From positions 7,209,063-7,250,030 of the forward strand of contig NC_057756.1 in the NCBI RefSeq assembly GCF_004010195.1: a DNA stretch of 40,968 bases, in the 5' to 3' direction. This document shows, one piece after another, positions 1,170-40,430 of the stretch (position 1 is its first letter; every line of letters starts with the position of its first letter). The stretch is from Chiloscyllium plagiosum. Taxonomy: Eukaryota. The translations under genes and the position numbers were made by a program. A model generated the notes under the pieces. The model had not been told where the DNA came from. It saw only the letters and a list, made by a program, of their open reading frames with translations, and ran no database searches.

Positions 1170-1426
1170 TTAAAGATTAACATTCCAACTCCAGTTTTGG
1201 TTCGATAAAGTTTCTGCGTTCAGCACTGGATCAGCTCCATTTCTGTGATTTGCTTGAATCCACCTTGAGCCCCATTTCTGTGTAACAGCAGCGTATGCAT
1301 AGGGCTCCTCTTCCTGGGTTTGAAGGTCAGATTTGTGAGCGTTGAAGACACAGACCACTGAATACAGAACCTCCTAACTTTCATCTGATTTGGTCCGTGA
1401 CAGAAAACAATGTGTTTGATATATAT
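1170..1426 (-). pseudogene. Siglec-like receptor terminal (cytoplasmic) exon with ITIM-like motifs, copy 1
   Basis: Acceptor ctccag|at (AG at 1427-1428). Reads DIYQTHCFLSRTKSDES*EVLYSVVCVF..QEEEPYAYAAV. VLYSVV fits the ITIM consensus (I/V/L/S)xYxx(L/V/I). In-frame TAG at 1374-1376. Confidence 0.6.
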
Positions 1427-6183: not shown

Positions 6184-6347
6184 ATGTCTGCCACTCATTT
6201 CCAAGAAATGTGGTTGGCAGTCCCTGAAATGTCAGCATCATCAAACATGGACACTCTTTGTTGTATTGTCTTCTGAGTTGTTCATTCGCAGAATTCAAAA
6301 TAATGAGCCACCTCCTACTGATTGGGATAACGTGCATCCTCACTAAC

Positions 6348-6488
6348 TTGCATCCTCAATGTTGTTAAATAGGGTGCGGGAATGACAACTTTCATCACGT
6401 TTCTTCTTCCAGTTAATAACAAAATCGTGCAAATGTTTCGGATTAGGTGCTTGGCATTGTGTGTGGACAGTCGCCTTTGTGACAATAT
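6348..6488 (-). pseudogene. Possible juxtamembrane/TM exon remnant of the Siglec-like gene
   Basis: tttgtttcag|at acceptor, 141 nt, phase 1-1, reading ..FVINWKKKR... The paralog (40346-40430) reads FVIIRKKK and has a gcag|gtaagg donor. No intact hydrophobic helix is visible. Confidence 0.3.
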
Positions 6489-6639: not shown

Positions 6640-7900
6640 TTTCAGCAGCTGAAATAAGCAGAATTAATCATTTGATCAAGAAAATGACGCCACCGTAGCC
6701 TCCACATGCATAAAGAAATCGACAGGAAGAAATGAATTAGGGAGATTGCAGTCCACAAGTAGATAGAATTGAAGTTAACCACTGGGCCATTCATTAGTTT
6801 TGGCGTTGTGTTGCAACCAAGTTGACTCACACCCTATCTGCCTCATTTCAACTTTGTTTTGCGATAATGTTTCCTTTCATTTCATTTACCTCAGAAACGA
6901 TCTGTTATATCCTCGAACAATGTTATTATTGGACAGCTCAGATCCGTAACAAAAATGTGGAATGCTGCTTTATCTTATTTAATTTTTCATTTAATGTGGT
7001 AACCTTTCTTTGAAAGGTAAGAGTGCAACTCTGCATATTTGGCTTTCACAATGAAAAAAGGACATTATTAAAGGAAATGAAAATAATGAGTACATATCTC
7101 TGATTTTCACACATAAAAACATTTTGAAGTTTTCAAAGTGCGTGGCAATTTATCACAATGCCACCACTTTACAGTCGTCAAATATATGAAATAGAGTTTA
7201 ATTCTCTGTCTCATGAAAAGCTGTGACTTAGCTGTTTCTTTCACTCCCTAGTCTTAGGAGTTTGCTAGCCTTTCCTTTGATAATTCCCACAACTGAGCTG
7301 GAATATTCTTATCACTAACCAAAGACTTCAAGTTTGAATTTTTCATATTTACATTCTTACAGGAGGATAACGTGTCTTGAACATTTCAAAATGAACTCCT
7401 CATGGGAGGAGAATCTGTTTCACATTTTCCCACAATGAGATTTTATCACACTAATTATAAATTTAAGATTAACATTTCAGCATCAATTTGTGTTCAATAA
7501 AGTTTCTGTTCCAAGTTTTGAAACCACTAGCATTCAGCTGTGGATCAGCTGCATTTCTGTGAATTGAGTGACTCCACCATGAGTTCAATTCCATTTAAAT
7601 GCAAAGTATTCACTTGTCTCCTCTTCCTGAGCTGAAACATCAAGTTTGTGAGTTTAAAGACACAGATCACTGAATAGAGAAGCTTGTCCCATCCACCGAT
7701 TTTGATCTATGACTGGAAACCATGTGTTAGGTATGATCTGGTAGGACAGTCAGGAGTATATTACCAGTACCATGATGATTTCTTGCAATGTTGCGAATAA
7801 CACATGGAACAACCGGGTGTACAATCCACAGGAGCCACTGCAGTCGCTCAACAAAGCTCCTCTGGCAGCACCTTCCAAATTCATGGTCTGTACCACCTAG
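6640..7900. repeat. Older segmental duplication (paralog of ~36075-38950 after removing LTR/SINE inserts there)
   Basis: Collinear blocks, e.g. gcctcatttcaactttgtttt (6840) vs gcctaatttcaatttgtttt (36301), and gtgcaactctgca (7023 vs 37279). Confidence 0.8.
7585..7737 (-). pseudogene. Siglec-like terminal exon with ITIM + distal Tyr motif, copy 2
   Basis: Acceptor ctaccag|at. Contains KLLYSVICVF and, after a frameshift, QEEETSEYFAF..*. Arrangement resembles CD33-type tails (proximal ITIM, distal TEY-like motif). Confidence 0.6.
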
Positions 7901-8519
7901 AAAGATATGTATGGTAATGCCATCCCCTAGTATTTGTGCCTTATACATTTGACACACTTATCACAGCTTGTGGAAAGGTGAGGCTGAATAATCAACCGTA
8001 ACTGAGTTGTCACGAAATGGAAAACATTTGATGTGAAAACCATATCACGAGTCCAACTTGATCGTAAGTGCTTTGAAGTATTGCAGGGTGTGGCAGACTG
8101 GAGTCAAAGCAATTGGGCAACACCAGCACTTTTTGTGATGTCGAACCTGAACTATTGCAAAATGCATGTCGACAAATGCTGTCTTTTTTTTTGCAAGTTA
8201 AAATAGCGTTCAATCTTGTTAGTATGTGCATGTGAAAAGTAAATTTATCCTTGTGTCACTTTTAAGTTTGTGACACAGGAGACGTCTTCGACTCATTTCA
8301 CAGAAAAATAGCACTGTGAGTCACCTCCAACGTTGGGACTGACGTGGGCAGTCCCTGATTTATAAGCTCCATCAAACAGGTGCAACACTCCTTTGATTTT
8401 CTACTGACTTAGAATCTAAAAGGATGGGGTAGTCTTATTTAGGAATATTGTTGCTGGACTTTAGATTAATAATGTCAGTGTGGCAGACCTAACAGACACA
8501 TTTAAAAAAAAAACAGGGC

Positions 8520-9030
8520 TAGAAAAGCAAATGCAGCAAGGATATTCCCGGTGACCGGCAGTCCAAACCCATGGTGGGTAGTTGGGTGGTGGAGGGGAAT
8601 TGTCATTCTTAAAGAGTGCAATGTAGACTACTTAGGGCTGAAATGGGGCAACATATCTTTTCCCAGAGAGTGGTGAGTCTTTGAAATTTCTGCCACAGAA
8701 GTGCCTGAGACCAAAACATTGGATGCTTTCAAGAAAGAGTTAAATGTAGTTCTTATCATGTAGCATGAGTAGAAAGTCCGGGGGAGTTGAGTAACTCTCT
8801 CTATGAGAACGATAAGAAATCTTTGGGGCACTCCACTCCAGAGTGCAGTGGATGCGGGCCTTGGAATACACTAAAGGGTTTGATAAATTTTTGCTCAGGA
8901 AAAGAAACATGTTCTATGAGGAGGACTGACAGAAAAGTGCTTTCAGTTCAGAATCAGAGTGACCACCATCTGATTAAATGGTACAAGACAGTCAATGAGA
9001 CAAATGGCCTTCTTCTGCTCTCGGTCATTA
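8520..9030 (+). mobile_element. Degenerate CR1 3' fragments
   Basis: Remnants of the CR1 C-terminal consensus (tttcccagagagtggtgagtctttg; ctccactccagagtgcagtgga; aatggccttcttctgctc). Confidence 0.55.
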
Positions 9031-9249
9031 AATCAACTGAATGACAATCAGGGGCATGGTCTGTAACATTGACGTCAAAAAGGACAAATTGAACACAATG
9101 ATTCCTGCTATCTTTATGGTCACATTAGCCTTCTCTCATTTTATATGCATTCATTTTGATCACATCTGACAGAAGTGACATTCATCGTGATCAGACCTTC
9201 AGACAATGCATTCAAATGGGCATTATACATATATTATACATTGCACCCT

Positions 9250-9452
9250 CAAAAGCAATGATGAGGCCGTAGCATTGAATATTTTCATGAAGGACATAAA
9301 TATAACTTTTATGGCTAAAGGGATCCGAAAGCATGAGAAGAAAATGGGAGCAAGGGACTGAGTTCGATGGTCAGCAATAATCATATTGCATGTTGGAACA
9401 GCTAGAATGGCCGAAAGGTGTATTCCTGCTCCTATGTTCTACGTTTCTATGT
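9250..9452 (+). mobile_element. Short CR1 3' end
   Basis: Ends ggccgaaaggtgtattcctgctcctatgttctacgtttctatgtt, a typical CR1 3' UTR/tail. Confidence 0.6.
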
Positions 9453-9702
9453 TCAGCATTTATTGTGATAATGATCAGTCGGGGCTGGGCAAGGCAATCT
9501 TGTCCAGAGGAGAGGAACAATATCGCTCAACAGGTTGCTTAGAAAATATCAACATTGAATTTAATGATATATTCAGTTCAGCATTACTTATAGTTTTGGC
9601 TTGCAATCTGCTTAGTAGAAAAGAGACTCAGGATTTACACTTGACTCTGTGTCTGAGCAAGCTGTCTTTAATAATTTCATGATATAACATTCAGAGATTC
9701 AC

Positions 9703-9990
9703 ATGTTAAATGGAGATGGTATCTGCTGACAGTAACTTACTACTCGTTTATGGCTGTGCATGAGATTAGCTTTTCAGTTCCAGTGAGGTGAATAAGTGTC
9801 AGAGAGCTCTGAAGCAATCTATTATTCACTCTCCTGCAATATACTACAGTGTCTGAGTCGTTTCCTGTGATTTTCCTCCCATTGAGGGTCCATGTGATGT
9901 TTACTGGGGGATTGGCTCTGACTCTGCGGGTACAAGTGAAGACATTCTTGGAACTGGTGGAAGTCAGACCAGATACTGCTGTGGGTCGTT
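9703..9990 (-). pseudogene. Ig C2/I-type domain exon of Siglec-like gene (unit A)
   Basis: Acceptor cctttttatag|aa. ERPTAVSGL..FTCTRRVRANPPVNITWTLNG..SSLTL..LISCTAINE**VTVSRYHLHLT. 288 nt, phase 1-1 to the donor homologous with the 17354 copy. TAG TAA at 9737-9742. Confidence 0.8.
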
Positions 9991-10109
9991 CTATAAAAAG
10001 GAACAACAGTGTTCACATAATGAGCTTTTTAAGCATACAGTTGCCACATTTACATTGAAGAGCTCTGTTTATTATTGAAGAACTACAGGCCATAATGTAA
10101 TTAAGAAGT

Positions 10110-10408
10110 GCAGAAAGAAGCCATTGTGCACATCAAGTCTGCACCAATCTTCTGAAAAACATCATCACTTCCACCTTTCAAAAACTTTGCATTTACCATG
10201 GCTAACCCACCTTACTGTAAATCCCTGGACACGACAGGGTAATTTAGTTTGGCTAATCCACCTCACCTGCACATCTTTAGGAGGAAAACAGAGCACCTAA
10301 AGGAAACCCATGGAGACACTTGGAGAATGTGCAAAAGCCACACAGACTGGAATCAAACCCAGGCGGTGTGAGGGAGAAGTGCTAAGCACAGAGCCACCGC
10401 CATCACCA
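10110..10408 (-). mobile_element. tRNA-derived V-SINE (HE1-like)
   Basis: Reverse strand shows a ggtggctctgtgcttagcac A-box-like head and the V-domain ttgcacattctcc..tgggtttcc..gtgctctgttttcctcc. Confidence 0.75.
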
Positions 10409-12443
10409 TTCACTGACAACAATTTGTTTAATGCGGTTACTCAAGTAACATGTCCCACACTATTTCTGATTCATGCTGATCAGATAAATTCGAGGCTACC
10501 TTTCAAAGCCATTGGGCACTAGATTACGTTCACAGCTAATTCGATGCAGAACAGTAAGTTTAAATCAGTTTTTGATGCCAGCAGTTTTTGATGCCAGACG
10601 TTACAGACTGTGGTAGGAAGAACCAATCATTCCTTAGAATCTCTGCTTATTATTTAGATCAGTCATCCTTGATAAACCATTGAATGTTATTTCCATCATT
10701 GCATCATTAATATCCTTACTTTCAAAACAATAGAATTTTGCCAATTTCAGTTTTGACTTGCTCCCGTTTCTAGTTAAGCCCTTGTTTTAAAATGATAACT
10801 GCCAAGATGGTTGAGTCAAGCCGAAAGTAGATATTTCGACAGTGTCTGCAGTCACTATGCACAAAGTGGCAGGAAACTGCTGAGAACTACATGCAATGCA
10901 AACTTGACACTGAATGTATAGTGTAAAAATAATGTTGTATATGGATTGAAAATGAAGCAAGGTGAATTTTATGTCGTTTGTTTCATTTTCAAGTAGAAAT
11001 ATTTTGTTATGCACTAATTTTATTAGTGAATTGCATCTTTGGAACATAATATCCGTCTCAGTGGAAGGAATATTTGCAATGATGGACAGTTTGCATCAAT
11101 TCAATTTCAGAGCATTTCAGAAGCAGTCCCCGTTGAAATGCAGCAAGATCTGAACCTTCAGGCTTGAGGTGACAAGTGGCAGGAAGCAATCGTGCCACAC
11201 AAATATCAGTCACTGACCATCGCCAATAAGCGACAATCTAGTAATTGCCCGTTAACATTCGATGGCATTAGCATAATTAACTAGTCCAGTGGCATCATTC
11301 TGGACGTTACCATTAACTGTTATGGGTTCACCTAAAGAAAAGGAGCAGATTCACATCGTCATGATTGGAATCATGTAAATAAAGTGTCGAGATTGTGGAC
11401 TGTATACTATTTAAGTAAATGACCAGGATAATAAAATGATCACTGACGAGAATTTAGTTATCAAGAGATAATAACCGACGTGTTCCCTCCTCCCCTCCCC
11501 AATTAGATGTTATTGCCAAGCCAAAGGTAAGTATTGTATAATATCGGGCCTACCATAAGCTGTCCTCTTGTTGTTTATAAAATGCAACAAAATTTTATAA
11601 ATGCCTCATTTCGGCTAACTTTTCCCATCTGTCATTAACAGTCGACATATGAAATCTGCTATGATTATTGTCATTCCTTTATGGCAAGTTCTATGATTTC
11701 TTTTTAAATTAAGCTCTCACCTGCCCTGTTTGTATAGTTCAGGGGGCTGCCGATAAGTACTACAAGTAATTATTTGCCTTTATCGTCAGTACCAACATCT
11801 ATTTCCACAACTTGATTTCCTGAACGTAGTCCATTCCTCTCTATTGTGCAATGCTATCATTAGATAAAAAGGCCAAACCCCCAACCCTACTGTTCTTATT
11901 ATTCCTGTCATTCTTAAATGTCATGAGCGTTCTAAATACACGTCCTAATGCATAACATCATTGAGCTATATTTCCCAAAAAGCAACCAGATCATACTGAG
12001 TCATATATCCTTATGCTCTCAGATCATCTGCTTTCTTTCAGTCAGGGTCTTCAGTCAGATACAGGCTTGATTCCTTTCTTATCTTTCTACATTCTAATCT
12101 TATCTGTTGGTCGACTCTTAGATTTATTTTGTTGCCATCAGTCTGTTAATCATTTCCCACATTAACGTGTTTGTCCTGGCTTGAACTCGCTCTTTGTCCT
12201 CCTCTCCTCCATTCCTCCTCTCCTCCATTCTGCATCGAATCTTCTGTACTTTCTTAACTAGCAGGCAGCAAGAACACCAGTCCCAGCAAATCAGATAGAA
12301 TCTGTCCCATTGGTACATATTCCACTTTCAGTATTTCTGGTGACAATCCCTGTGGAACTGGAACACATTTCTCTTCCACCAGTCTTGGATATAGTATGAT
12401 GAACTATTCAAGTGTTCTGGAGCAGAGGGCATTGAGCTGCACT

Positions 12444-12668
12444 GAGCTGAAAATATGTTGCTGGAAAAGTGCAGCAGGTCTGGCAGCATCCAAGGAACAG
12501 GAGAATCGACGTTTCGGGCATGAGCCCTCCTTCAGGAATGATTCCTGAAGAAGGGTTCATGCCCGAAACGTCGATTCTCCTGCTCCTTGGATGCTGCCTG
12601 ACTTGCTGCGCTTTTCCAGCAACACATTTTCAGCGCTGATCTCCAGCATCTGCAGTCCTCACTTTTCC
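12444..12668. mobile_element. Palindromic Penelope-like-derived short element
   Basis: Inverted arms centred at ~12540 (caggaat g attcctg). Same family as 21345, 21686, 28269 and 33716. Confidence 0.8.
12541..12576 (+). ncRNA. Minimal type I hammerhead ribozyme motif
   Basis: attc CTGAAGA a gggt-tcat-gccc GAAA cgTC gatt: CUGANGA core, stem II, GAAA, palindromic ACGU stem III, UC cleavage site, very short stem I. Confidence 0.6.
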
Positions 12669-12878
12669 CATCATTTCTGCAACAGAACACCAATTGAGCA
12701 ATGCGACCTTGTGCAATAGGCTTGCCTTTTCCCATACTTTTGCTGTTTCTAGTTCAATAACCATATAACTTCAGTTTGAAGGCTTCAGTTTAACTTGTTG
12801 ATTAGGTGTTAGAGATGCATAAGATTATATTTGGAGAAAAAAGCCTCCCCCAATAACACTTCATTGCCATCTGGGGAT

Positions 12879-13523
12879 TGTTATGAACCAGGCCAGATCC
12901 CCTCAAAACATTACAAGAAGGTAGCCCAGACCCTAACATTTCAATTTTTTTGAACAATTCTGTGACGGATGTTCCAGGAGAGAATCAGCTGGTCAAACAA
13001 CTTCGTTTTAAACATAACAAAATTAATTTAAATGATTACTGAATGAAATACAAACAGCAAAAACGCAGAATACCGAATATCCTAACATCTCTGAAAACCC
13101 AATAGATTACCCCAAATTGATGATGGTGTTCCAAATGCTTGCAACAATCCCCATAAACACCCCTTGGCACAAAAAGTAAAACCAAACATAGGTTCTTACA
13201 TGATAGATGTCAGAGAGAGAGCGAGAGAGAGTACCAACCTGGACCTGCTTCTTTGGGTGCAGCCGTTCTTTCCAATACTTCTAAAATTCAAACCAAACCA
13301 GAGACAAAATTAGCTGGGAGAACTGGTCACTCCCATTTCATTGTACAAGTTTTTTTTAATTGAAAGCCTTCTGACTGAGACATTATCTGTTAGCTATTAT
13401 CAAATTGTACCTAAAACCTTTCAACCCCTTCAACAGACTTTCTAGAGTCTGTGCCATTTACTCCACTCTGAGAAAAAAAAGCCAAGGACACTATAAACTC
13501 TTTACAGGAGAAGCTTCATCACA
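12879..13523. mobile_element. Solo-LTR-like insertion
   Basis: TG...CA termini (tgttatg...catcaca). Absent from the paralogous site (~19735). Related to 17923 and 20150. Confidence 0.7.
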
Positions 13524-13795
13524 GAAAGGATGTGATCTGACTGACAAGAAATTGCTGACCAATGGTTGATAGATTTTCAGGCAGCCAATCTACCGCTTCT
13601 CAAATCATTGTGAGGAGACAATGTTATAGTCATTTCTTCAACACTATCTCCTACACTCTGCCTGAAGAATAAAGTGGAAGATGTGAATCCCCAATTTGGA
13701 AATGGTCACTTTTCCAGAGCAATTGAGCTAAAGAGAACAAATCTGAAGTTGTTCAGTGATTAGGTGGGCGATTGAGCGGAAATACGTATACCTAC

Positions 13796-14086
13796 ATTCG
13801 ACATGGACCTGAAGAGTTTCTTGACCGATCACCACTCCAACAGCCCCTGTAAATTTCCACAGCAGGTTCCGTCAGTGATTGTCAGCTGAAAGAGTGAAGG
13901 TGAACGTTGATAAAGCAATCCATGAATTCGCTAAATGTTTCCTGATTTTACCTAAAGCCTGAATAGGAGTTAGATTCGGTCCCTGTGTCCAAGTCAAATC
14001 AAAATCGCAACTGTGGGTGACTGAACAGATCAGGCCCACTGGTTTACCAACAAACAATTGTGCAGAGACGGCGACTTGAGGGTTCT
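13796..14086 (-). pseudogene. Siglec-type second Ig (C2-set) exon, unit A
   Basis: ctgatag|ag acceptor, t|gtaggt donor, 291 nt phase 1-1. ENPQVAVSAQLFVGKPVGLICSVTHSCDFDLTW..STFTFTLSADNH*RNLLWKF..ETLQVHVE. CSVxHSC and a DHG.NL.C-like motif match Siglec domain 2. TGA at 13872-13874; second Cys replaced by Trp. Confidence 0.85.
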
Positions 14087-14689
14087 CTATCAGTGGAAAT
14101 GATAAATAGCATAACTAGAGATTCCAATGTCTATATTCTGGAGGGACGCGCAAACAATGATAAGTAAATGGATGACGACATTTTCTTCTTCATCTTTGCT
14201 GCAGTCTAAGCTTCCTCGGACTGCGAGATTTAAGAAGAACGTACGTGTACTCCATTACTAATCGCTCACACCTCCCCTTTTCAGTCCTGATAGTTTATTT
14301 GTAATGTTCATCATTCAATATTCTTGTTTAGGAGATATAATTTGATGCGTAAAGAGACACGGTGTATTAATTAACGGGGAAAATACAGTCACTGTAAAAC
14401 AATGATCTCCTTTTGATGATAAGTACTCACTCCACAGAATGTGTCCACTACCCAGAATTCCTCACTCCATTACACAGACCCCATTTCTTAGCCTTAAAAA
14501 TGCCATATTAACATTGAATAAAAATTTCTAATGGCTGTTTTGAAGGTTGCAATGCCCTTTGCGCATAGAACTAAAGCCAGAAGCAGTCTCTGGTCTGCAT
14601 TGAGGATGTTACCAATCATTCGGATCTCCATGGACCAGGATTTGTTTGGACAAATCATCTAAGTTCAATATCTACCAGTACATCTCAGA

Positions 14690-15215
14690 GACTGGGAATT
14701 GTGCAGCAAGTAACTGGGATGCCAGGGAGGTGATTAGTGGGCCCCTTTCTGAGATATTTGTCTCATTAATATCAACAGCTGAGGTTTCAGAAGACTTCAG
14801 GTTAGCTCATGTGTTTCCATTATTTCAGAAAGATGGTAAAGAAAAGCCAGGGATCTATCGACTGGCGAGCCTGACGTCAGTACTGGGCAAATTGTTGCAG
14901 AGCCTTCTGAGGGATGGGATTTTCAGGTATTTGGAAAGGCAAGGACTGAGTAGAAAGAGTCAACATTCCATTTTGCTCGGAAAATCGTGTCTTACTAACT
15001 TGGTTGAGTTTTCTGAAGAAGTGACAAAGCATCTGACATAATTCTGCATGGCAAACTGTTTAGCAAAATTAAATCACATACAATTCAGTAGGAGTGAGCC
15101 AATACAAGATTGTTTTGAAGATAGGAGACAGAGTGTGGTGATAGAGGGTTGTTTTTCAGAATGGAGGCACGTGACCAGAGGTGTGCCACAAGGATCAGTG
15201 CTGGGACACTGCTTC
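14690..15215 (+). mobile_element. Old CR1 RT fragment (duplicated at ~21945-22490 and ~30415-30935)
   Basis: [37 protein letters not shown] remnants in the same flanking context in three copies. Confidence 0.8.
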
Positions 15216-15522
15216 TGAACCCATGACCTATGTATTGTGAATGACAGGGATGGAAGATAATGGAGACATCAATCCCTGTAAGTTGCCATGGCATCCACAC
15301 AACATTCAGATTTGGAAGGAGGTCGTCATGGAAGCTTTGGCGTTTGGTGAAAGTATTGATAGTCCCCCCCCCCCACCCCCCCCACCCTCATCTGAGTGTG
15401 GATACTCTAAGCTCCAGAAACAGCCACGCTTCAGGAAGGCAGATCACTCCGTCTGTTGGGAGTAGAATTATGTTTATACAATTAATGTTGGTCGAGTCAG
15501 CAATGACTACATCACATGCGCG

Positions 15523-15712
15523 AATTTTCACCCTGATGAATGACAATCTACATTTATCTTCCTGGCGTGTTTTATTCATGATGAACACTGATACTTTGTC
15601 AGTTTTCCCCTCCTTTCTGTTCTCTGTTTATATTCATACTTTCTGGATCTCTGGGACTGTAGACAATGATGCCTGGTTTTGGACCTCCCTCTAACCACAG
15701 AGTCGTTGGATT
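15523..15712 (-). pseudogene. Siglec V-set exon remnant (3' half), unit A
   Basis: RNPTTLWLEGGPKPGIIVYSPRDPESM / RTERRGKLTKYQCSS*IKH / FIRVKI across frameshifts. Homologous to 22865-23208. Confidence 0.7.
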
Positions 15713-16439
15713 TCTGCTTCTTGTTCATGATGAAATGAACTGTGTATTCTGTTGGGGTTCTGAGCTGTAGTCAGTCAGTTAAATCGGTTTATGTGCTATA
15801 CACATCATCACACATGTCACTGTCTTTGGAACAGTAGGGTTCAATGATCAGCCCAAACTGAGTTGTCACGAACTGGAAAAAGTGTGATTTGAAAACAAAA
15901 TCACAAGTTTAACTTGTTGGTAAGTGCTTTGAAGTACTGCAGGTTCTGGCAGACAGGAATGAAAGTAATTGAGCAACATTTGCACTTTTCGTAATGTCAA
16001 ACTGGTCATATTATAAAATTACATAAATATGTGAAAAGTTTTATCGTTAGAAAAATTCACTGTTGTTATTTGTATGTGAGGAATAAGTTTGTCTGTTTTC
16101 AAGTTTGTGACATGGAAGATGTTTGTGTCTTATTTCGAAAAACAGTAACTCAGTGAGTCAACTCCAAATATATTATGAGGTGGGCAGTCCCTGATGCATA
16201 ACTTCTATCAAACAACGGCATCACTCATTGGATGTTTCAGAGGTGGTCAGAACAATCTTTCCTCCACTAAGTTGCTTGTGCCCTGTTAGTCATTTAATGC
16301 TTTCAGTCTTAAAGGGCAGCCTATGAAACGTCAGTTTAAACATACCAACTATAAACTCATACCTCTGCAATTTCACTGCAATAGAATCAGACTGATAATG
16401 GCCAAAGCTGTTCTTGCGAGTCTGACAATTATCCAGGTA

Positions 16440-17340
16440 CAGAATTATCCAGGGCAGAAGGGTTATTTGCAATGATAGACCGAGTTGTTTTCGTAATGGA
16501 GTTAGCGGTCTCAAGCAATTAAATTTCAGGACATGTCTGAAATGCAGCAAGACCTAAACATCCAGACTTAGACTGACAAGTGGTAGGAAATAATCAAGCT
16601 GCACAAATGCCAGGCAATGACCATCTCCAATAACGGTTGTCTTCTAAGAAATCGATTGTATCACTATACTTTTTTGCCACGGTCAACATTCTGGGGTTTA
16701 GCATTGGACCGAAATTCAATTATGCTTGTCATATAAATGTAGAGGTGACAAGGACAGTCAAGAGCCTGGGAATATTCAGGAAATAACTCATCTTCTGAAT
16801 CACCAAAGCCAGTCCACCATCTACAACACACAAGTCAGGAGTTTGGTGGAACACTCCTCCCTTGCTTGAATGAGTACTCTTGCAAATGCACTCAACAGTC
16901 TTGATACCATCGAGGACATAGCAACCTGCTTGATTGGCATTACATTCATGAACATCCACTCCCTCGACCCTCCATGTTCAGGAAAAGCATTGTGTACCTT
17001 CTAAAAGATACACTATTGAAATTCACCAAGGCTGTTAAGACAGCACTCTCCAAACCAGCGACCACTTCCATCGTGAAGGATGAAGAGCAGATTCATGGGA
17101 AAACCATTTTCTGTACATTTGCTGACAAACTCCTTACAATCCTGACTTGGCAATATATCATTTTTGTTTCAGTATTGTTAAGTGAAAGATCTAGAAATCC
17201 CAACCAAGGAGGATACAGAGCGTACTTACAATACATGGACTGCAACGGTTTAAGGAGGCAGCTCAAGTGTAACTAGGGACAAGCAAAGGAATAATGGCCC
17301 TGCCAGCGATGCCAACCTCCAATGAAAGAAATAAAAATAA
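16440..17340 (+). mobile_element. Degenerate LINE 3' part with A-rich tail
   Basis: RT C-terminal remnants (tacaacacacaagtcaggagtttggtggaacactc); ends gaaagaaataaaataaaa. Related fragments at ~1530-1735 and 11040-11320. Confidence 0.6.
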
Positions 17341-17353
17341 AATTAGGGTGTAC

Positions 17354-17634
17354 CTGTTGAATTCAGCTGGTAGATAATGACAATACCATCATTCTCGTTC
17401 TTTGCCTTGCATATAATCAGCTCTCAAATCCATTTAGGTGAGTCAGTGTTAGAGATCACTGAAGCAGGCCATTATTCTCTGTCAGGAATAGACTCTAACA
17501 TTTGAAATGCTCCCAGTGATGTTTTTTTTTCCTCCGCTGATGTTACTTGTGATGTTTACTGGGAGATTGCAGATTCAAAAAAGCCTCATTCTTGGAACTA
17601 ACGCAGTTCAGACCAAATACTATTATATGTTCAT
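17354..17634 (-). pseudogene. Ig C2/I-type exon, unit B (paralog of 9703-9990)
   Basis: ctttag|at acceptor, g|gtacac donor. Pieces NLPVNIT, NNGLLQ*SLTLTHLNG, IICKAKNENDGIVIIYQLNST, with several frameshifts. Confidence 0.75.
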
Positions 17635-17922
17635 CTAAAGAAAAGGAGCAGATTCACATTATCATAAATGTAATCATCCACATATAATCTGTAGATTGTG
17701 GATGGCATTCTATTTAAGTAACTGGAGAAGTTAAGAAAATTTTCACTGACAGCAGTTTAAATACTAAGAGATAATAAATCGTCACCATCAAGTGGGTGCT
17801 GTTGTTAAGCAAAAATTAAGAATTATACCATATCCTGTCTGCTATAAATTTGTTCTCTCATTTGTTTTGGAACATGATCCTAAAAACATTTTATGAATGC
17901 TTCATTTCGGATATCTTTTCCT

Positions 17923-18720
17923 TGTTATGGACTCGGCCAGACCACTCAAAACATTTTTCAGCAGGCAGCCCCAGATCATAACTTCACAATTTGTTTCAGT
18001 AACTGTGCAGTGACAGTTACCTGGAGTAAGATAGTTAGGTTGACTACTAGACTTTTGAACAGACAAAAATCTATTCATAAAGTTACACAATGAAACACAA
18101 AGAACAGAATAAAAGAACCCCTACAAAACTCAATCGATCCAATTGGACTTAATCGTACTGCTCTGAATATACACAACAGACCCAACAAGCAAACACCCTT
18201 TTAAAGCATATAAAGGTGTCAATCTCAGTTTGGAAACGTTCACCTTTCGAGGTGAGCGGAACTAAAGAGAAAGAATCTGAAACTGTTTAATTATTGGATG
18301 GTTGAATAAAAAGGAAATGCAGCCACATGCAATTCACATTCAATCTATGAGTTTCTTGAGCATATGCTTACAGGTTCAAGTTGAAGGGCCGAAAGAGAGA
18401 GAGAGAGAGAGTTTCCACACAGCATTCTATTGAAATTCTTATCAGGTCAGAATGAACTAAAAACTGGTCAGCTCAACTAGAGAGCTAACCAATCCCCTTT
18501 CATTAAACAGGTCACTTCTAAACCATGACCACTTTGGCCTGAAGTCTCATCTGTTTGCATACAAACAAAAGGCCTCTTAAAATCATTTTCTTCTCTGTAC
18601 CAAACCAGACTAATTGGAGCCTGGCCCGGTTTATTACCCCTTTGAAACAAAAGCAAGTATAGAGTCTTCTTGAGCCAAGGAACAGCTTTTAGAGAATAAA
18701 AAGGGACTATCTTTGTGACA
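17923..18720. mobile_element. Solo-LTR-like insertion containing a 149-bp captured local fragment
   Basis: tgttatgg...ttgtgaca termini. Empty site in paralog (cttttcccatctg, ~11619). Degenerate 4-bp TSD tcct/cccc. Confidence 0.7.
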
Positions 18721-19989
18721 CCCCATCTGACATTAACAATCTTTATATGAAAACCTGCATGATTATGATCACAGCTTTCTGGCAAGGTTTCAGATTTCTT
18801 TAGTTATGCCGTAGCTTACCATCTCCTTACAGTTTGGGGGCTGCAGATGAATACCACAAGTAATTTTGTGCCTTTACCATTTCTCAGACGTATCAAAATA
18901 TGTTTCCACAACTTGATTTCGTGAACATAGGCCATCCCTCTCTGTTGTGCTAATGCCATCATTAGATAATTCACTTACCACATTCTTTTCTCTCTTCTTG
19001 TCATTCCAAAGTGTCCAGAAACCTTCAAGGTTAATGCCCTAATTCCTGTCATCATGAAGTTATGTCTCTCTAAAGGCTGCCAGATCATACTAATTCAATT
19101 ATCCTTGCGCTGTCAGAACATCTACTTTGTTTCTGATACAGAGTTCAATCAGATACAGAGCCTTCTGCTCCATCCCTTAGTTGTTTTTATAAATTCAACT
19201 TTCTCGGTTGATTGACACTTAAATTTCTTTTCTTCCTGTCACAGTCTATTTTTTATTTCTGACATTGAAATATTTGTCTTCGGCTTTAATTCACCCTTGA
19301 CTTAATATATTGTCCCAAGTTTGATATCTTCTCTCATCTACTCTGGTTTGAATTTTCTGTATTTTCCTCACTAGCAGGCAGCAAGAACACTAGCGGCAGC
19401 AAGTTCAGGTAGAATCTGTCCCATTTGTACACATTTCCACTTTCTGGATTTCTGATGATAGTGCACTCGAAACTGGAACCCCTTCTCTCCCACCAGTCTT
19501 TATTAAAGGCTATTTGGTCCATCATTTCTGCAACAGATCACCAAATGAAAAATACAACATTCTACAATACTTCTGCCTTTTCCCCATACCCTTGAATGTT
19601 GATTCTAATGAAATAACGATCTAAATTCAGCTTGAAAGCTTCAGTTGAACTTGCTCATCAGGTGTTAGCAATGTGTGAGATTATATTTGGGAAAAAAAAT
19701 GGATCTACCAATATAATTTCCGTGCCCAATTGGAATATACTCGATTAATTGAAAAGAAATTGCTGATCAATGATTAACAGGCTTACAGAGAGACGACATT
19801 TTCTGCTCAAGTCATCAGGACAGATGAAGGTGTTATTGTCATTTTTCATACCTGCCTGAAGATTACAATGGAAGGTGTCAATCTCAGTTTGGAAACGTTT
19901 ACCTTTCAAGGTGAGCAGAACTAAAGAGACAAAATCTGAAAGTGTTTAATTATTGGATGGTTGAATAAAAAGGAAATGCAGCCACATGC

Positions 19990-20893
19990 AATTCACATCC
20001 AATCTATGAGTTTCTTGAGCGATCCACTAGCCACTGTAAGTTCACAGAGCAGGGACAATCTGTAATGGTCGGCAGGTGTAGTGAGGAGCTATTTGGTATA
20101 ACAGTCCAGGAATTCTCGAAATTGGTCCTGAGTTGTACTGAAATCTCAGTGTTATGGAAGAAGCCAGACCCCCTCAAAACATTCCAAATGTCTGCCTAGG
20201 CCCTAACTTTTCTAGTTGTTTTAAGCAGCTTTATGGTGCATATTCCAGGATGCAGCTGGCCCAAAAACTCATTTTGTAGCAAAACAGCAGTTATTTATAG
20301 ATTACCGAATGAAACATGAACAAAAGAGAACCGAATCTCAAATAACTTAACCTATCTGAAAACTCAGTCGACTCTATTGCAACTTAATTATGCTGTTCCA
20401 AATTCGTCCAATATCCCCATAAACCACCACTTTGCAAATAACTAAATACATACACTGGTCGTTACAGGAGAGAAATACGAATCTAGGAACGTTTTTTCTC
20501 TTGAGCCGTTTTCTTTTACTAGCAGCAGCAAACAGATTACTTGCTAAAACCAAACCAAACCAGAAAGAAAAACTCTGAACTGAGTGAACTGACCACTCAC
20601 CTTCCATTATACAAGTGTTTAAAGAAAACTTAAAAGCTTTTTCAGGTAGATATTTCAGAACATATTGGAACCTCTGCTTTTATGACCCCTCTTGAAAAGA
20701 AAACCAAGCGCAAAATAACCTTGTTAAAGGAGAAGCATCGTCACAGCAAATCCTGATTGAATAGATATTAGACACAGCCCTGGTATCCATTTCAGTTCAA
20801 AACCACAATTTGAAAAACTGTGGGTGACTGAACAGTTCAGGTTCACTGGTTTTCCAGCAATAAATACACCAGAGACTGCAATTTGTGGTTTCT
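19990..20893 (-). pseudogene. Siglec-type C2-set exon, unit B, split by an LTR
   Basis: ctgacag|ag acceptor. EKPQIAVSGVFIAGKPVNLNCSVTHSFSNCGFELKW..[LTR 20150-20745]..NSWTV / PADHYRLSLLCEL / AQETHRLDVN. Donor position reads GC instead of GT. Confidence 0.8.
20150..20745. mobile_element. Solo-LTR-like insertion inside Ig exon
   Basis: tgttatgg...cgtcaca termini; similar along its length to 12879-13523. Confidence 0.7.
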
Positions 20894-21344
20894 CTGTCAG
20901 GGGAAAGCCAAAATAGCACAATCGAAGATTCCAAAGTCTGTACTCGAAACAGATTGCAACCAATAAAGAATAAGCGCGCGATGACATTTTATTCTTGATC
21001 TTTGCTACAGTCTAAGGTTCCTCAGAGTGACAGATTCAATAAGAATATACTTATACGACATTAACAGTCGCATTCCCCTCCCTTTTCTGGTCCAGATGTT
21101 TTATTTGCAATTATAATCATTCAATATTCTTGTTTGGAAGATAGAATTTGTTGTATACAAAGGTTCCTCAATGGTAACGTGTGTTAATTAGCAGGGAAAA
21201 TACACACAGTATGATGTCAATTATCTTCTATTGACAATAGTTAATTACACATCAGCATGTTTCCACTCTCCAGAATGTCTCATTCCATAAAGTAGATCCC
21301 ATTTCTTAGCCTTGCAATCACCATATAAACTAGGTTTTCCGAAG

Positions 21345-21553
21345 TGGAGAGTATAGTGCTGGGAAAGGACAGCAGGTCAGGCAGCATCGGAGGAGCAGGA
21401 GAATCGATGTTTCGGGCATAAGCCCTTCATCAGGATGGACTTATGCCCGAAACGTTGATTCTCCTGCTCCTCGGATGCTGCCTGACCTGTTGCGCCTTTC
21501 CAGGGCTACACTCTTGATTATGAGCTCCAGCATCTACAGTCCTCACTTTCTCC
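21345..21553. mobile_element. Palindromic Penelope-like-derived short element (older)
   Basis: Inverted arms; degenerate 14-bp TSD taggttttccgaag / taagttttctaaag. Confidence 0.75.
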
Positions 21554-21685
21554 TAAGTTTTCTAAAGGTTAGTTTGAAAGTTGCAATGCTCTTTCCACAT
21601 TGAAATAAGGTCAGAAGCGGTCTCTCAACCTGCACTGAGGTTGTTACAAATGAATTGGATCTCCCTTGACCAAGAGTTGATGGGA

Positions 21686-21885
21686 AAAAGTAAGGACTGC
21701 AGATGCTGGAGATCAGAGCTGAAAATGTGTTGCTGGAAAAGCGCAGCAGGTCAGGCAGCATCCAAGGAGCAGGAGAATCGACGTTTTGGGCTTGAGCCCT
21801 TCTTCAGGCTCATGCCCGAAGGTCGATTCTCCTGCTCCTTCGATGCTGCCTGACCTGCTGCGCTTTTCCAGCAACACATTTTCAG
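21686..21885. mobile_element. Palindromic Penelope-like-derived short element
   Basis: Inverted arms; perfect 15-bp TSD caagagttgatggga (21671-21685 / 21886-21900). Confidence 0.85.
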
Positions 21886-22864
21886 CAAGAGTTGATGGGA
21901 CAAGCCATAGAAATACAAGAGCTACTAACACAGGTCAAAGACTAGGAATTGTGCAGCAAACAAGCGGGAATCTAAGGAAGTGATTGATAGATCCCTTGCT
22001 GAGATATTTTTATCAATGATAGTCAGAAGGGAAGTGGCAGAACACTGTGTGTTGGCGAATAAGGTGCCATTATTTCAGAAAGGTGGGTAAGGAAAGGTCA
22101 GGGAACTTGAGACCGGTGAGGTTGATGTCATTGGTGTGCACGTTTTTGGAAGGGATTCTGAGGGGCAAGATTTACAGATATTTGGAAAAGCAAGGATTGA
22201 ATAGAGAGAGTCAACATGGCTTTGTGTATGGGAAATCATGTCTCAGTAGCTTGATTGAGTTTTCTGAAGAAGTGACAGAGAAATTGATGAAGGTAGATCG
22301 ATACACATTATGTATATGAACTCAGCAAAGCGTTTGACAAGGTTGTCCATTGTAGACTGGTTAGCAAGTTTCGATCACGTGAAAGCAAGGGAAAGCTAAC
22401 CAATTTGTTACAGAAATTGGCTTGAAGGTAGGAGACAGGCTGGTGGTGGAGGGTTGTTTTCAGAATGGAGGTGTTTAACTACCAGGGCGCTGAAGAATCA
22501 TTGCTGATACATTGCTTTCTGACCTATGACTTCCGGTATCGTGAGGGACAGGAGTGGCAGGAACTTGGGGACACCACACCCTAAAGAATCCATGGAAGCA
22601 ATATTCAGAATTGGAAGGAGTTCAGCACTGAAAGAAATGCACTGTGCCAAAATACTGAGGAAATCCCTCCCTAACCTCACTGTGGGTACTCTAATCTCCT
22701 GGAACTGACATGTTTGAGGAGTGCAGATCGCTCCCTCTTATGAAACTATGAATATTCAATGGATGTTGGTCCAGTCATCAATGACCACATCACATGCATG
22801 AATTTAAGAAAAAGACAGTCCTGAAATGAATGAAACTTCAAGCCAGAATATAGTCGGAGGCAGG

Positions 22865-23208
22865 AATATTGTTAATGTAGACATCCGATACATTCATGGC
22901 ATTCATAATCTTCACCCTGATGTAATAGTCTCCTTCATCTCTCTTCCTGATGTGTTATATTAACAATGAAGATTGTTGCTTTGTCAGGTTCTTCCTCAAT
23001 TCTGTTCCAACTTTAAATTCAGGTTTCATAGTGTCTGGATCTCTGGGACTATAGATACTGCTAACACTATGAGTTCCCTGTTCAGGACCTCCCTTTTACA
23101 GAGAATTTCCAGATTTCTGACACCGGCCAGATCCGATCTCTGCACATGACCCAATCACTGCCGAAACATTCCAGGGAACCTTCAGAGATCATCAGGAACT
23201 CTCGACAG
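22865..23208 (-). pseudogene. Siglec-like V-set Ig exon, unit B
   Basis: Strong acceptor tttttcttattcag|ct. One frame: AVESS**SLKVPWNVSAVIGSCAEI..IYSPRDPDTMKPEFKVGTELRKNLTKQQSSLLI*HIRKRDEGDYYIRVKI. GSC.I and D.G.Y..R are Siglec V-set signatures. Four in-frame stops; 3' boundary approximate. Confidence 0.8.
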
Positions 23209-23245
23209 CTGAATAAGAAAAATGGGTTAGACTTCCAGTGAAATC

Positions 23246-24155
23246 TGTAATGAGAGCAAAATTTGAACTAATACATTAAAATACAGTCGAATATTGTGGA
23301 CTAAATCTACAAACATCAACTATTACATAAATATCAATAACAATAACATACTCAGCAAATTATTACTGATAATTAACTCTTACAACATGGCAATGAACCC
23401 TTCTGCTAATTAAACCAAGCACCAAGAAAAGCTCACCTCGCCTTGTAATCTGCTAAGACACGAGTGACAGAGAATTCACAAATTCCAGTTTTTAAAGATA
23501 ATAATATTAATTTATTCCTTAACTCTAAAAGTGAACAGTAAACAAACACTATTCACAACTCTAAACCCCCATCTCCTAACTGCTTATTATCTGTCTGCAA
23601 CTCTGTAACAATATACTGTTGCAATAAAAACACTTATTAAAATTGCATCAACTTAATTTCAAAAGCACACAGTGGCTGTCGTCTCTGGTGTCTGTCTTCT
23701 TCCAGCTGACGATCTGCCTTGGTCATCTTCTTTCTTTTACTCCCAAGATGCTTCATATGAAAAAGATATCTTTGAGAGAGTGTTTTAGAATGAATCTTTC
23801 TTGATGGCAGGTACTCTCTCAATGGCAGTTGCTCTGTCTGACTTTTAAAATGACTGTATTTTAACCCTCATAATCAGATCATCTCATTGGTTCGATGTTG
23901 ACAAAAAACACAAACTCAAACTCGATTGGGCTTTGCTATCCTGGGGCAGAATTTAAACTGATTGTTTAAAATTGAATTGTTGCCAAAACAGCAACCAACT
24001 CAGGCATCTATTTCAAAGCCAAATGTTAAATATTTTCAATTTTCCAGTACACTCTGAGATTGTGAGCTAGTCATATGACAGGTGCTTGTAAGCTCTCAGT
24101 GCAAACTACATTCACTCTCTCTTAAAGGTACAGTACACATTTTAACTACATAACA
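23246..24155. mobile_element. Solo-LTR-like insertion
   Basis: tgtaatg...cataaca termini (TG..CA, short inverted repeat), ~900 bp, non-coding; no clear TSD. Confidence 0.55.
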
Positions 24156-28152: not shown

Positions 28153-28268
28153 GTGACTGAAAGTGATTGTTAGAAGCTTGGAGTACAGAATAGACACGCA
28201 GAGTAATTCAGCTGAAAGAGCAAGTTTACTTTACCCTCAACATAAATCGTTTTGTCTTATTTTCAAAG

Positions 28269-28394
28269 AGAAAGTGAGGACTGCAGATGCTAGAGATCAG
28301 AGCTGAAAGTGTGTTGCTGGAAAAGCGCAGCAGGTCAGGCAGCATCCAAGGAACAGGAGAATCGACGTTTCGGGCATGAGCCCTTCTTCAGGAA
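28269..28394 (-). mobile_element. Single-arm Penelope-like-derived short element
   Basis: Perfect 14-bp TSD tcttattttcaaag (28255-28268 / 28395-28408); empty site in paralogous intron (~32214). Confidence 0.85.
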
Positions 28395-28395
28395 T
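28360..28395 (-). ncRNA. Minimal type I hammerhead ribozyme motif
   Basis: Reverse complement: attc CTGAAGA a gggc-tcat-gccc GAAA cgTC gatt. Confidence 0.6.
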
Positions 28396-33715: not shown

Positions 33716-33925
33716 GGAGAAAGTGAGTACTGCAGATGCTGGCGATCAGAGCTGAAAATGTGTTGCTGGAAAAGCGCAGCAGGTCAGGCAGCATCCAGGG
33801 AACAGGAGAATCGACGTTTCAAGCATAAGCCCTTCCTGAAGAAGGGCTTATGCCCGAAACGTCGATTCTCATGTTCCCTGGATGCTGCTTGACCTGCTGC
33901 GCTTTTCCAGCAACACATTTTCAGC
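33716..33925. mobile_element. Palindromic Penelope-like-derived short element
   Basis: Perfect 15-bp TSD tatgatttcctacgc (33701-33715 / 33926-33940); inverted arms. Confidence 0.85.
33833..33867 (+). ncRNA. Minimal type I hammerhead ribozyme motif
   Basis: ttc CTGAAGA a gggc-ttat-gccc GAAA cgTC gatt. Confidence 0.6.
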
Positions 33926-38275: not shown

Positions 38276-38384
38276 AGAGTTTTATTCTGCATCACATCTA
38301 TGGCTGTGACTTAACTCTTTCTTTCACTTCCAAGTCTTAGGTATTTGTTAGCCTTTACCTTGATCTTTCCCACAACTGAGCTTG

Positions 38385-40430
38385 AATATTCTTAAATGAC
38401 TCTATCTGATTTATAATGAAAGCCGTCTGGCCTGGAATTTCATATTTATATACTTGAAGCAGGGTAACACAATTGGAACTCTTCTGACCTAACTTCTCTC
38501 TGGATGAGAGTCTGTTCCACATCTTCCAAAAATGAGATTTTACCTTGTTGATTATTAGTTAAAGATGGACATTCCAACTGTACTTTTGGTTTGATAACGT
38601 TTCTGTTCCAAGCTTTGAAACTACTTGTGTTCAGCACTGGATCAGTTCCATTTCTGTGATTTGCTTGAATCCACCTCGAGCTCCTTTCTGTGTAACAGTG
38701 GTGTATACACTGGGCTCCTCTTCCTGGGTTTGAAAGTCAGATTTGTGAGCTTTGAAGACACAGATGATTGAATACAGAACCTCTTAACTTTCATCTGATT
38801 TGGTCTGTCACAGAGAACAATGTGTTTGACATATATCTGAAGGGTCAGGCAGGAGTATTACCAGAACTCGGACAGTATCTTCCACAGGATACAAAAAACA
38901 CAAGTAGCAATAGATAGAACACACAGAAATCACTCACCGAAGCTTCTCAAGGAGCACTTTCCAAACTCACGGCCTCCATTAGGCAGGTGGACAATGGTAG
39001 TACATGCATGGGAACACTGACCCCTACAAACTCCCTGTCAAGCCATACATAATCCTGATTTGCAATTACATGAGCGTTCGTACCTAGTGTTTGAATAAAA
39101 AGGCTGGATATGCCTTCTCATAGCAGTGTGTCTCCATGTTTTACTCCCATTGTGATGCAGACTGTAGGTAAGTGGATCGTTGGAGGCTGGAACTGCTGAG
39201 AGGAGGAGTAATTAGCCAAGGTTATGGGGGAGGTGCATGTCGCTATTCCCGAGAGGAGAGGCTTTGAGAGGGAGTTAACATGTCGGGGCATGAGAGAAAT
39301 TGAGACAGAAAGGTGACAGAGATGGAAAGGGAGTGTGGTGTTGCGGGGTAAGACCGTGAACATGAGGAGTGATGGCCCGTGAGGCAGAGAGTGTGACATG
39401 GGCGTGGTATCATGGAGCGCCGCCTCATTTAGGCAATGCATGAAGTGAGGCTTTTCAGAGTCAAATCCCAAGGATTCTTACTCTTTTCCTGGGATTTCCT
39501 TCCCTCTGTGGGTTTCTGTCTCTCTCTCTCTCTTTCTATTTTTTTTCTTGCTGTGCTTTTCCTTTCTCTCTGTCTTTTTGACTTGATCTCTCACTATTTC
39601 TCCTCCTGGATTTTCTCCTTCACTTGTAGTGGTGTTGTCTGTTCTTCTCGATCTCCCTCTTTCTGTCTGTCCCTCTCTGTCTCTCTCTCAGTCTAAATTA
39701 TCTCTCTGATTCCCTTGCCCCCTTGGTCTTTTTATTGTAGGATAAATATTTACAGCAAACAGACTGGTTTGTCCAGTTCATGATGAAATGAAGTGTGTAT
39801 TGTCTTGGGGTTTCTGACATGTAGTCGGTTAGCTGAATTGTTCTTTGTGCTGTCCACACTGGACACACATGCTGTGGTTTGTAAAATAGCGGAGCTCAGT
39901 GATCAGCCCAAATTAAGTCGTGACAAACCAGAAAACGCTTGATATGGAAACCACATCAGAAGTTTAACTTGTTTGCAAGTCCTTTGAAGGATGATGCAGA
40001 GTAAGGTCGATGCAGTTGTTTTACATTTACACTTGCTATGCTTTTGAACTGGAAGTATTATATTGCATGTTGGGTCTGCTGTGTTTTATTTTCAAGGCTA
40101 AAAAAAGGCTCAGTCTCGTTATTATGTGCATTTGGAGGATAAATCTATTCTTGGCCCATTTTTAAGTCTGTGACACAAAAGATGTCGATGACTCATTTCC
40201 AAGAACTGTGGTGGGCAGTCCCTGAAATGTCAGCACCATCAAACAGGGACACCGTTTGTTGTATTTTCTGCTGAGTTATTTATTAGTAGAATCAGAAATG
40301 ATGAGACAGCTCCTTACAGTTGGGATATTATATGTTCTCCCTTACCTGCATCTTCAAAGTTGCCCTGTCAAATGGGCTGCGGCAGCGACAACAACTTTAC
40401 CACATTTCTTCTTCCTGATAATAACAAAAT
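38385..40430. repeat. Segmental duplication copy B (paralog of 995-6425)
   Basis: Collinear with copy A; lacks the 3.4-kb LINE. Confidence 0.93.
38631..38836 (-). pseudogene. Siglec-like terminal exon with two ITIM-like motifs, copy 3
   Basis: cccttcag|at acceptor. DICQTHCSL*QTKSDES*EVLYSIICVF..QEEEPSVYTTVTQK..; VLYSII and SVYTTV both fit the ITIM consensus. Two in-frame stops. Confidence 0.6.

Follow-up and report, generated by a model that had tools for sequence, protein, structure and literature searches.

Probable disabled remains of four tandem MAG-related Siglec-type receptor genes in Chiloscyllium plagiosum

By definition, the V domain of a Siglec carries cysteines in its B and E strands and none in its F strand. 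Within this receptor family two groups serve as references for the locus described here, a cluster of broken receptor exons in a 40,968-nucleotide stretch of Chiloscyllium plagiosum DNA (hereafter the window, numbered from its first letter). The first is MAG (Siglec-4), for which the accessible part of PMC5150538 describes an Ig1-Ig2 disulfide (C37-C165), an extra cysteine pair in Ig5 and an N-terminal WxxW motif conserved from fish to human; fish MAG also carries an immunoreceptor tyrosine-based inhibitory motif (ITIM), according to excerpts of PMC7226832. The second comprises the mammalian CD33-related Siglecs (Siglec-3, -5 to -12, -14 and -16). Closest of all are elasmobranch MAG-like or Siglec-like RefSeq models, whose names were assigned automatically by NCBI and whose functions are predicted only. 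The nearest is XP_043539253.1 ('myelin-associated glycoprotein-like', Chiloscyllium plagiosum; hereafter P0004), and others are XP_059497281.1, XP_078093182.1 and XP_067874825.1. The window contains the same exon types in the same order with 55-77% identity per exon, and it shares with the carpet-shark models a shortened first cytoplasmic exon that lacks the membrane-proximal ITIM. In contrast to these models, the copies in the window are broken, and they are paralogues of the annotated gene.

We find that the window very probably holds what is left of four disabled tandem copies of a MAG-related Siglec-type shark gene, whose intact parent was likely inhibitory and whose decay likely represents the death side of birth-and-death evolution. 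This conclusion starts from direct observations, namely the exons, their order and lesions, a fusion of two copies, and the finding that intact relatives match Siglecs. An original prediction had described eight pieces between 7585 and 23208 as disabled Siglec-like exons in two tandem copies. Self-comparison of the window and frameshift-aware alignment revealed four copies instead, all on the minus strand and in the order X, B, A and C (Table 1). Copies X and C lie outside the span noted before, a deletion has joined B to A, and a transmembrane remnant of copy B had been missed. The eight pieces themselves are genuine disabled remnants of tandem receptor gene copies and stand in the order proposed. 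With P0004 as the tblastn query, seven of the eight aligned colinearly, together with two further tails; the expectation values (E) in gene order are 6e-36 (V), 9e-14 (C2), 1e-10 (C2), 5e-11 (V remnant), 8e-26 (C2), 4e-30 (C2) and 5e-5 (tail). Frameshift-aware scores of the Ig exons range from 139 to 294, against maxima of 31-42 for shuffled sequences (20 shuffles each). An AG acceptor marks the starts at 23208, 20893, 17634, 14086, 9990 and 7737, and the V remnant of copy A starts at the deletion junction instead. Since P0004 is colinear with the window, these exon types occur together in one gene model, which joins V, C2, C2, C2, transmembrane segment and tail in the order of the window. The worry that intact paralogues might not combine them is thereby answered at the level of the gene model.

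In copy B, 4 stops and 8 frameshifts accompany a 612-bp insertion. Copy A contains 4 stops and 3 frameshifts and no transmembrane exon. Together the two copies have 8 stops and 11 frameshifts and have lost exons and splice sites, with their introns kept. Copies A and B encode no receptor and qualify as unprocessed pseudogenes. Copy C is a fragment. The 5' part of copy X, including any upstream exons, would lie beyond the window, so that this copy is represented here by its 3' part. Over the exons compared, DNA identity between the two is 71-78% for copies A and B.

Table 1. Receptor gene copies, their exons and neighbouring reading frames in the window.
Feature	Position	Strand	Content or match
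Copy X	40414-38685	-	first cytoplasmic exon and tail
Copy X, first cytoplasmic exon	40346..40414	-	score 37 vs shuffled maximum 19
Copy X, tail exon	38685..38804	-	E 2e-10; 90% DNA identity to copy C tail
Copy B	23208-15723	-	V, second Ig exon, first membrane-proximal exon, transmembrane remnant; without cytoplasmic exons
Copy B, V-set exon	22843..23208	-	76/121 identical to P0004 V
Copy B, second Ig exon (MAG domain 2 type)	19990..20893	-	2 frameshifts, donor lost
Copy B, first membrane-proximal Ig exon (MAG domain 5 type)	17354..17634	-	56/89 to P0004
Copy B, transmembrane exon remnant	16363..16450	-	16/24 to transmembrane segment of P0040; score 56 vs shuffled maximum 35
Deletion junction B-A	15716..15723	-	intron homology to copy X stops at 15723; V homology starts at 15716
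Copy A	15716-7585	-	V remnant, second exon, stub, second membrane-proximal exon, tail; without transmembrane exon
Copy A, V-set remnant	15484..15716	-	46/76 to P0004
Copy A, second Ig exon	13796..14086	-	54/96 to P0004
Copy A, stub of first membrane-proximal exon (~7 codons)	11309..11331	-	remainder deleted
Copy A, second membrane-proximal Ig exon	9703..9990	-	62/95 to P0004 second copy
Copy A, tail exon	7585..7737	-	20/32 to P0004 tail
Copy C	6410-1272	-	first cytoplasmic exon remnant and tail
Copy C, first cytoplasmic exon remnant	6346..6410	-	81.5% DNA identity to copy X region
Copy C, tail exon	1272..1394	-	E 4e-12; 30/39 identical
Seven-transmembrane receptor ORF 1	29087-30016	+	Pfam 7tm_1, E 5e-19
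Seven-transmembrane receptor ORF 2	34856-35650	+	Pfam 7tm_1, E 4e-15

The V exon of copy B starts where it had been placed, at 23208, and runs beyond the end proposed (22865) to about 22843. It contains 3 stops and 2 frameshifts and has lost its donor; the inter-domain cysteine and the F-strand arginine are kept, and the E-strand cysteine is replaced by serine. The second Ig exon is split by the 612-bp insertion (20142-20753). The inserted sequence is itself a repeat, parts of which match 12879-13354, and it is deeply covered in all sequencing runs compared. A 149-bp local duplicate (18213-18361 and 19872-20020, 95% identical) comprises the end of this exon and downstream intron. The first membrane-proximal exon carries 3 frameshifts and 1 stop between intact splice sites, and it clusters with the first such domain of the carpet-shark models (support 100/99). 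The transmembrane remnant is the best match of its kind in the window (score 46, reversed control 33), with 1 frameshift, its acceptor lost and its donor kept. Downstream, the last intron of copy B passes directly into copy A partway through its V exon: a deletion at about 15720 took out the tail of B, the intervening spacer and the first part of that V exon.

In copy A, the V remnant lacks the first 35 of 127 residues and contains 1 stop and 2 frameshifts, with the E-strand cysteine and the arginine preserved. The second Ig exon is disabled by a single stop at 13874 between intact splice sites. The stub consists of DNA matching the start of the first membrane-proximal exon of copy B (69/89 identical, score 98 against a shuffled maximum of 26), followed by sequence that matches the downstream intron of B. 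At the protein level it has no match (score 23, shuffled maximum 28), so that its earlier assignment holds in DNA only and with revised coordinates. The second membrane-proximal exon has 2 stops (9742 and 9739) and is sister to the second membrane-proximal domain of P0004 (95/96). The tail was rightly recognized as a tail exon, with an ITIM-like LLYSVI, 1 frameshift and a degenerate distal tyrosine motif; its likely acceptor is 7706, which corresponds to that of the database homologue, rather than 7737. Several parts were searched for in the window without success. Five leader queries scored 31-32 at best (reversed-window control 29-30), a second transmembrane exon did not rise above reversed-window background, and neither a MAG-Ig4-type exon nor an activating-type transmembrane exon was found. 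Searches for the transmembrane and first cytoplasmic exons of copy A and for the cytoplasmic exon of copy B likewise stayed at background.

The identity of these exons was traced through intact relatives. A phmmer search of 1.84 billion proteins with the first V exon returned 25 hits, of which P0004 was the best (E 3.9e-26, 58%). Twenty of the 25 hits were named: 12 elasmobranch MAG-like or Siglec-like proteins, 2 bacterial repeat proteins and 6 other vertebrate Ig proteins. The top eight are all of the first kind once ranks 5 and 6 (a bacterial repeat protein and a lungfish multi-Ig protein) are set aside. Database searches with P0004 itself yielded at least 15 proteins, and a 14-sequence profile at least 27 (about 8000 candidates scored in each case). 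Combined with the named hits of the V exon, they represent at least 12 shark and ray species from 10 genera. The sole non-elasmobranch rows among these candidates were two teleost CD22 sequences with far lower scores, and no chimaera, skate or whale-shark row was among them (weak evidence). Contrary to the lineage-specific family proposed before, the family is elasmobranch-wide, and only the copies in the window are lineage-specific. Several models of one species lie on contigs of identical length, 5 in Heptranchias and 3 each in Stegostoma and Scyliorhinus torazame, an indication of clustering.

These relatives match Siglecs in sequence and in predicted fold. The 14 best PDB rows for the intact P0010 are all Siglecs, with MAG first at 3e-40. 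The family profile, whose domains correspond to MAG Ig1, 2, 4 and 5, finds MAG at 5.6e-66, Siglec-8 at 6.7e-38, CD22 at 3e-30 and nectin-1 at 3e-13. Foldseek with a predicted model of P0006 (mean predicted local distance difference test score, pLDDT, 64.6; predicted template modelling score, pTM, 0.41) gives the order MAG (1e-24), CD22 (8e-18) and nectin-1 (2e-14); the template modelling scores are low (0.32-0.36 by query) because the domain angles differ. With positions checked against MAG in the profile alignment, the B-strand cysteine is present in 20/22 family V domains (the other 2 are truncated), the E-strand cysteine in 21/22 and an F-strand cysteine in 0/22. Through decay, the V exon of copy B has lost both the B- and the E-strand cysteine. 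The inter-domain cysteine occurs in 16/22 family V domains, and its partner is kept in the second exon of copy A and lost in that of copy B; the disulfide itself is predicted from sequence. P0043 and P0057 have aspartate at the inter-domain position, and both models lack a second Ig domain bearing the partner. By Pfam and alignment the intact relatives have a type I layout with an N-terminal V-set domain, C-type Ig domains, a transmembrane segment and a tail, with which the exon order in the window agrees. The Siglec-like architecture of the original prediction is therefore upheld by the best hits of the V exon and by relatives that match Siglecs far above nectins.

Among solved relatives the family appears nearest to MAG without comprising MAG orthologues. 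MAG is the top match in sequence and fold, and the Ig5 and Ig1-Ig2 cysteine pairs are common to both (compare the accessible part of PMC5150538). In contrast, the family is only 20-26% identical to mouse MAG, mostly has 3-4 Ig domains and has often lost the arginine. It is also multi-copy with species-specific duplicates, whereas MAG is a highly conserved single-copy gene with five Ig domains. WxxW was not found in alignments of the family V domains, which retain at most the first single tryptophan. To CD33-related Siglecs the match is weaker than to MAG over similar spans (1.5e-16 and 4e-27), and the likeness to that group claimed earlier holds as an analogy. Clustering, fast turnover, pseudogenes, an ITIM with a distal tyrosine motif, loss of the arginine in some members and possible paired receptors are common to both, as far as the accessible parts of PMC6288428 and PMC13358205 describe them. 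An ITIM-like motif follows the transmembrane segment in 17/29 family models (the pattern allows a terminal isoleucine; an ectodomain match in P0060 is excluded), and it is from such tail motifs of intact relatives only that the inhibitory function is predicted.

Activating CD33-related members couple to DAP12 by a charged transmembrane residue. Possible shark counterparts are P0053 (Mustelus), P0013 (basking shark) and an internal unit of P0054, which share a distinct transmembrane segment with an arginine near its N-terminal end and have no ITIM. P0053 is identical to the ITIM-bearing P0006 at 360/416 aligned residues. These models are candidate activating partners and fit a system of paired receptors; the reading is weak, since the shark segments lack the asparagine of NxxR, the motif of FcR-gamma-coupled receptors (accessible part of PMC2413239), and the models are automatic. 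Elasmobranch multi-V Siglec-like genes (XP_072326180.1, XP_038670873.1 and XP_059815055.1) have Siglec-type V domains like those of the family. Unlike the family they carry 2-4 tandem V domains and form a separate clade (15 rows, support 93/96), outside of which the exons in the window fall; in catsharks two of these genes lie on contigs equal in length to those of family members. P0007, P0011, P0015, P0034 and P0037 represent this second Siglec-like family of elasmobranchs, in which some V domains have the arginine and others lack it.

Phylogenies support both the birth-and-death pattern and the cartilaginous-fish origin that had been suggested. In a tree of V domains (47 rows, LG+G4), the two V exons of the window are sisters (97/85) within a carpet-shark group (93/89) and other species form their own pairs (100/89-100); the outgroup is not monophyletic and deep branches are unsettled. 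In a tree of membrane-proximal domains (41 rows), the copy B exon groups with the first and the copy A exon with the second such domain of P0004. Each of the 4 carpet-shark models is defective: P0004 lacks a leader and contains intron-like sequence, P0005 lacks a transmembrane segment, and P0038 and P0040 lack a V domain.

Based on XP_043539253, the parent gene would have encoded a V-set domain, a MAG-domain-2-type domain, two MAG-domain-5-type domains, a transmembrane segment, a cytoplasmic exon and a tail with an ITIM and a distal tyrosine motif. By analogy with Siglec biology, the arginine-bearing V domain may have bound sialic acid on host glycans, and the phosphorylated ITIM may have recruited SHP-1/2 and damped leukocyte activation (accessible parts of PMC6288428 and PMC13358205). 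Segmental tandem duplication in carpet sharks would have been followed by early loss of constraint, and later by deletions (the transmembrane and cytoplasmic exons, the B-A fusion) and insertions of long and short interspersed elements (LINEs and SINEs).

Several observations weigh against this account. The essential arginine is present in only 8/22 family V domains, so that many members may not be sialic-acid lectins; XP_078093182 is one of the members with it and XP_067874825 one of those without. Taken alone, the decayed exons have no significant Siglec match in Pfam or PDB, and their assignment runs via P0004, which is an automatic model with intron-like sequence among its first 96 residues and a serine at the inter-domain cysteine. 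Long-branch attraction may contribute to the pairing of the two pseudogenes in the V tree, and the trees contain neither a mammalian Siglec nor a true shark MAG, so the place of the family within Siglecs is derived from search scores. The strict ITIM signature [I/V/L/S]xYxx[L/V], with its terminal leucine or valine (excerpts of PMC7226832), is failed by LLYSVI of copy A and VLYSII of copy X. It is passed by the first motif of P0004 and, within the window, by VLYSVV (the first motif of copy C) and SVYTTV (copy X), both behind stops. Expression was assessed in about 2% of one run of unspecified tissue.

The first of these points bears on ligand binding. The parent genes could have been Siglec-fold receptors that were no longer sialic-acid lectins and recognized protein or microbial ligands, which we consider somewhat unlikely. 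In favour of this idea, the F-strand arginine is missing from 14 of the 22 V domains of the family, including all 8 rows of a shark-and-ray clade with support 100/100, and R118A abolishes ganglioside binding by MAG (accessible part of PMC5150538). However, both V exons in the window and their closest relative, P0004, keep an arginine at the R118 position, so a lectin fits this locus better.

Copies C and X share a stop at the same codon ahead of the ITIM (1376 before VLYSVV in C; 38786 before VLYSII in X, where SVYTTV follows as a second motif). The cytoplasmic exon remnant of copy C has a mutated acceptor and a frameshift, and its protein match is weak (score 30, shuffled maximum 23). Copy X retains the acceptor and donor of its first cytoplasmic exon, the acceptor of its tail and an AATAAA at 38286. 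It could accordingly be the live 3' end of a gene beyond the window that encodes a short tail without ITIMs (a decoy or adaptor-coupled receptor), and the shared stop could predate the death of the copies. We regard a live copy X as improbable: a LINE 3' end adjoins the upstream side of its cytoplasmic acceptor, and the ratio of nonsynonymous to synonymous rates (dN/dS) between the X and C tails is 2.33 (0.83-8.45, 39 codons), which shows no constraint, although none would be expected in any case on a tail that follows a stop. LINE 3' ends flank the cluster beside copies C and X (457-1002 and 40423-40968) in opposite orientation and are 94% identical.

A non-Siglec Ig origin of the pieces, from nectin, CEACAM, butyrophilin or SIRP or from a family confined to sharks, is very improbable and largely refuted. 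Single decayed exons do give weak and mixed PDB matches (antibody, T-cell receptor, major histocompatibility complex class II, DSCAM), none of them to a Siglec under E 0.2. The decayed V exon matches an antibody chain best (E 0.097; sialoadhesin 0.24), and in Pfam it reaches V-set at E 0.003 and Ig_CD22 at E 0.01, both under the curated cut-off. Pfam reported no family in 8/8 frames or pieces of frameshifted exons, and a word-indexed protein search with the decayed V gave 13 candidates, none significant. Against a non-Siglec origin stand the PDB, profile and Foldseek rankings, which place Siglecs first by wide margins, the Siglec-type cysteine pattern and the absence of butyrophilin or SIRP from the best 60 PDB and profile rows.

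Sequencing data speak for the reality of the lesions. Four of 24 listed runs were compared with positions 7000-23300 at 80% likeness, and matches were read from the contigs listed. Run X7 (same organism label, different study) contains contigs matching 15497-15942 with 1 difference and 16977-17751 with 16 differences, both without gaps, and a contig of run X9 from a second organism (15176-15866) crosses the B-A fusion. Since contigs of both runs span it, the fusion is not an assembly error, and its presence in X9 indicates that it predates the split of the two organisms. The X9 contigs have a sense codon in place of the stop at 17458, so that either decay continued after this split or the contigs represent paralogues. 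Mismatches between copies A and B fall almost evenly on the three codon positions (47/53/54 over 166 codons), and their dN/dS of 0.73 (bootstrap 0.49-1.07) gives no clear purifying signal; the divergence of A and B is mostly neutral. It is hardly credible that errors of sequencing or assembly have produced these lesions in genes that are really intact, given the gap-free contigs from another study, the junction-spanning contig from a second organism, the lack of codon-position bias and the missing whole exons. Wherever listed contigs cover the sequence we consider this idea refuted (the V exon of copy B lies outside the listed contigs and copy X outside 7000-23300).

In single-cell RNA run X21, sampled at about 2%, depth was 0-0.14 in bins of the V, C2 and tail exons and up to 143 in repeats. 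No spliced joint between family exons was among the 15 listed of about 2840, a table crowded by repeats. Run X23, presumed to be RNA, has a 707-nt contig that aligns to 9757-9920 with 4 gaps and 23 differences; at about 85% likeness to the second membrane-proximal exon of copy A it is a paralogue, either spliced or genomic. A short repeat, the most deeply covered sequence in the RNA and DNA runs, occurs as head-to-head or inverted pairs at 12444-12673, 21357-21886, 28268-28396 and 33716-33935. The rest of the window is LINE and SINE debris and the two open reading frames (ORFs) of rhodopsin-type receptors listed in Table 1. They occupy the plus strand of the interval that separates copy X from copy B and are 81% identical in DNA, the second stopping after 264 codons; we take them to resemble GPR139-like genes expanded in sharks.

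Literature searches on Siglecs in cartilaginous fish found no study of this family, most subscription journals lying outside their coverage. A vertebrate-wide Siglec survey by Bornhofft and colleagues (2018) reportedly exists and may include cartilaginous fish. In its accessible part, a paper on the whale shark (PMC8455134) names Siglecs a single time and counts them as a family of jawed vertebrates. What is new here is the recognition of the copies in the window as further members of the auto-annotated elasmobranch family.

These pseudogenes are inactive and tandem decay of immune-receptor genes is common; the value of this locus is as a pointer to a little-studied receptor family. Its relatives form a clustered, ITIM-bearing, fast-turnover Siglec-type family in at least 12 elasmobranch species. 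More tentatively, and with considerable doubt, sharks and rays may run their own CD33-like system derived from a MAG-type gene, with clustered ITIM receptors, activating partners and a large, arginine-less and probably non-lectin branch. In carpet sharks the subfamily seen here would be dying wholesale, with four broken copies in the window and all four database models defective. If so, paired inhibitory and activating Siglecs, or their independent invention, would be placed at the base of jawed vertebrates. Should leukocyte expression and pairing prove true, this family would bear on two alternative histories of the fast-evolving cluster of inhibitory Siglecs: descent from the ancestor of jawed vertebrates, or two separate origins from MAG-like genes.

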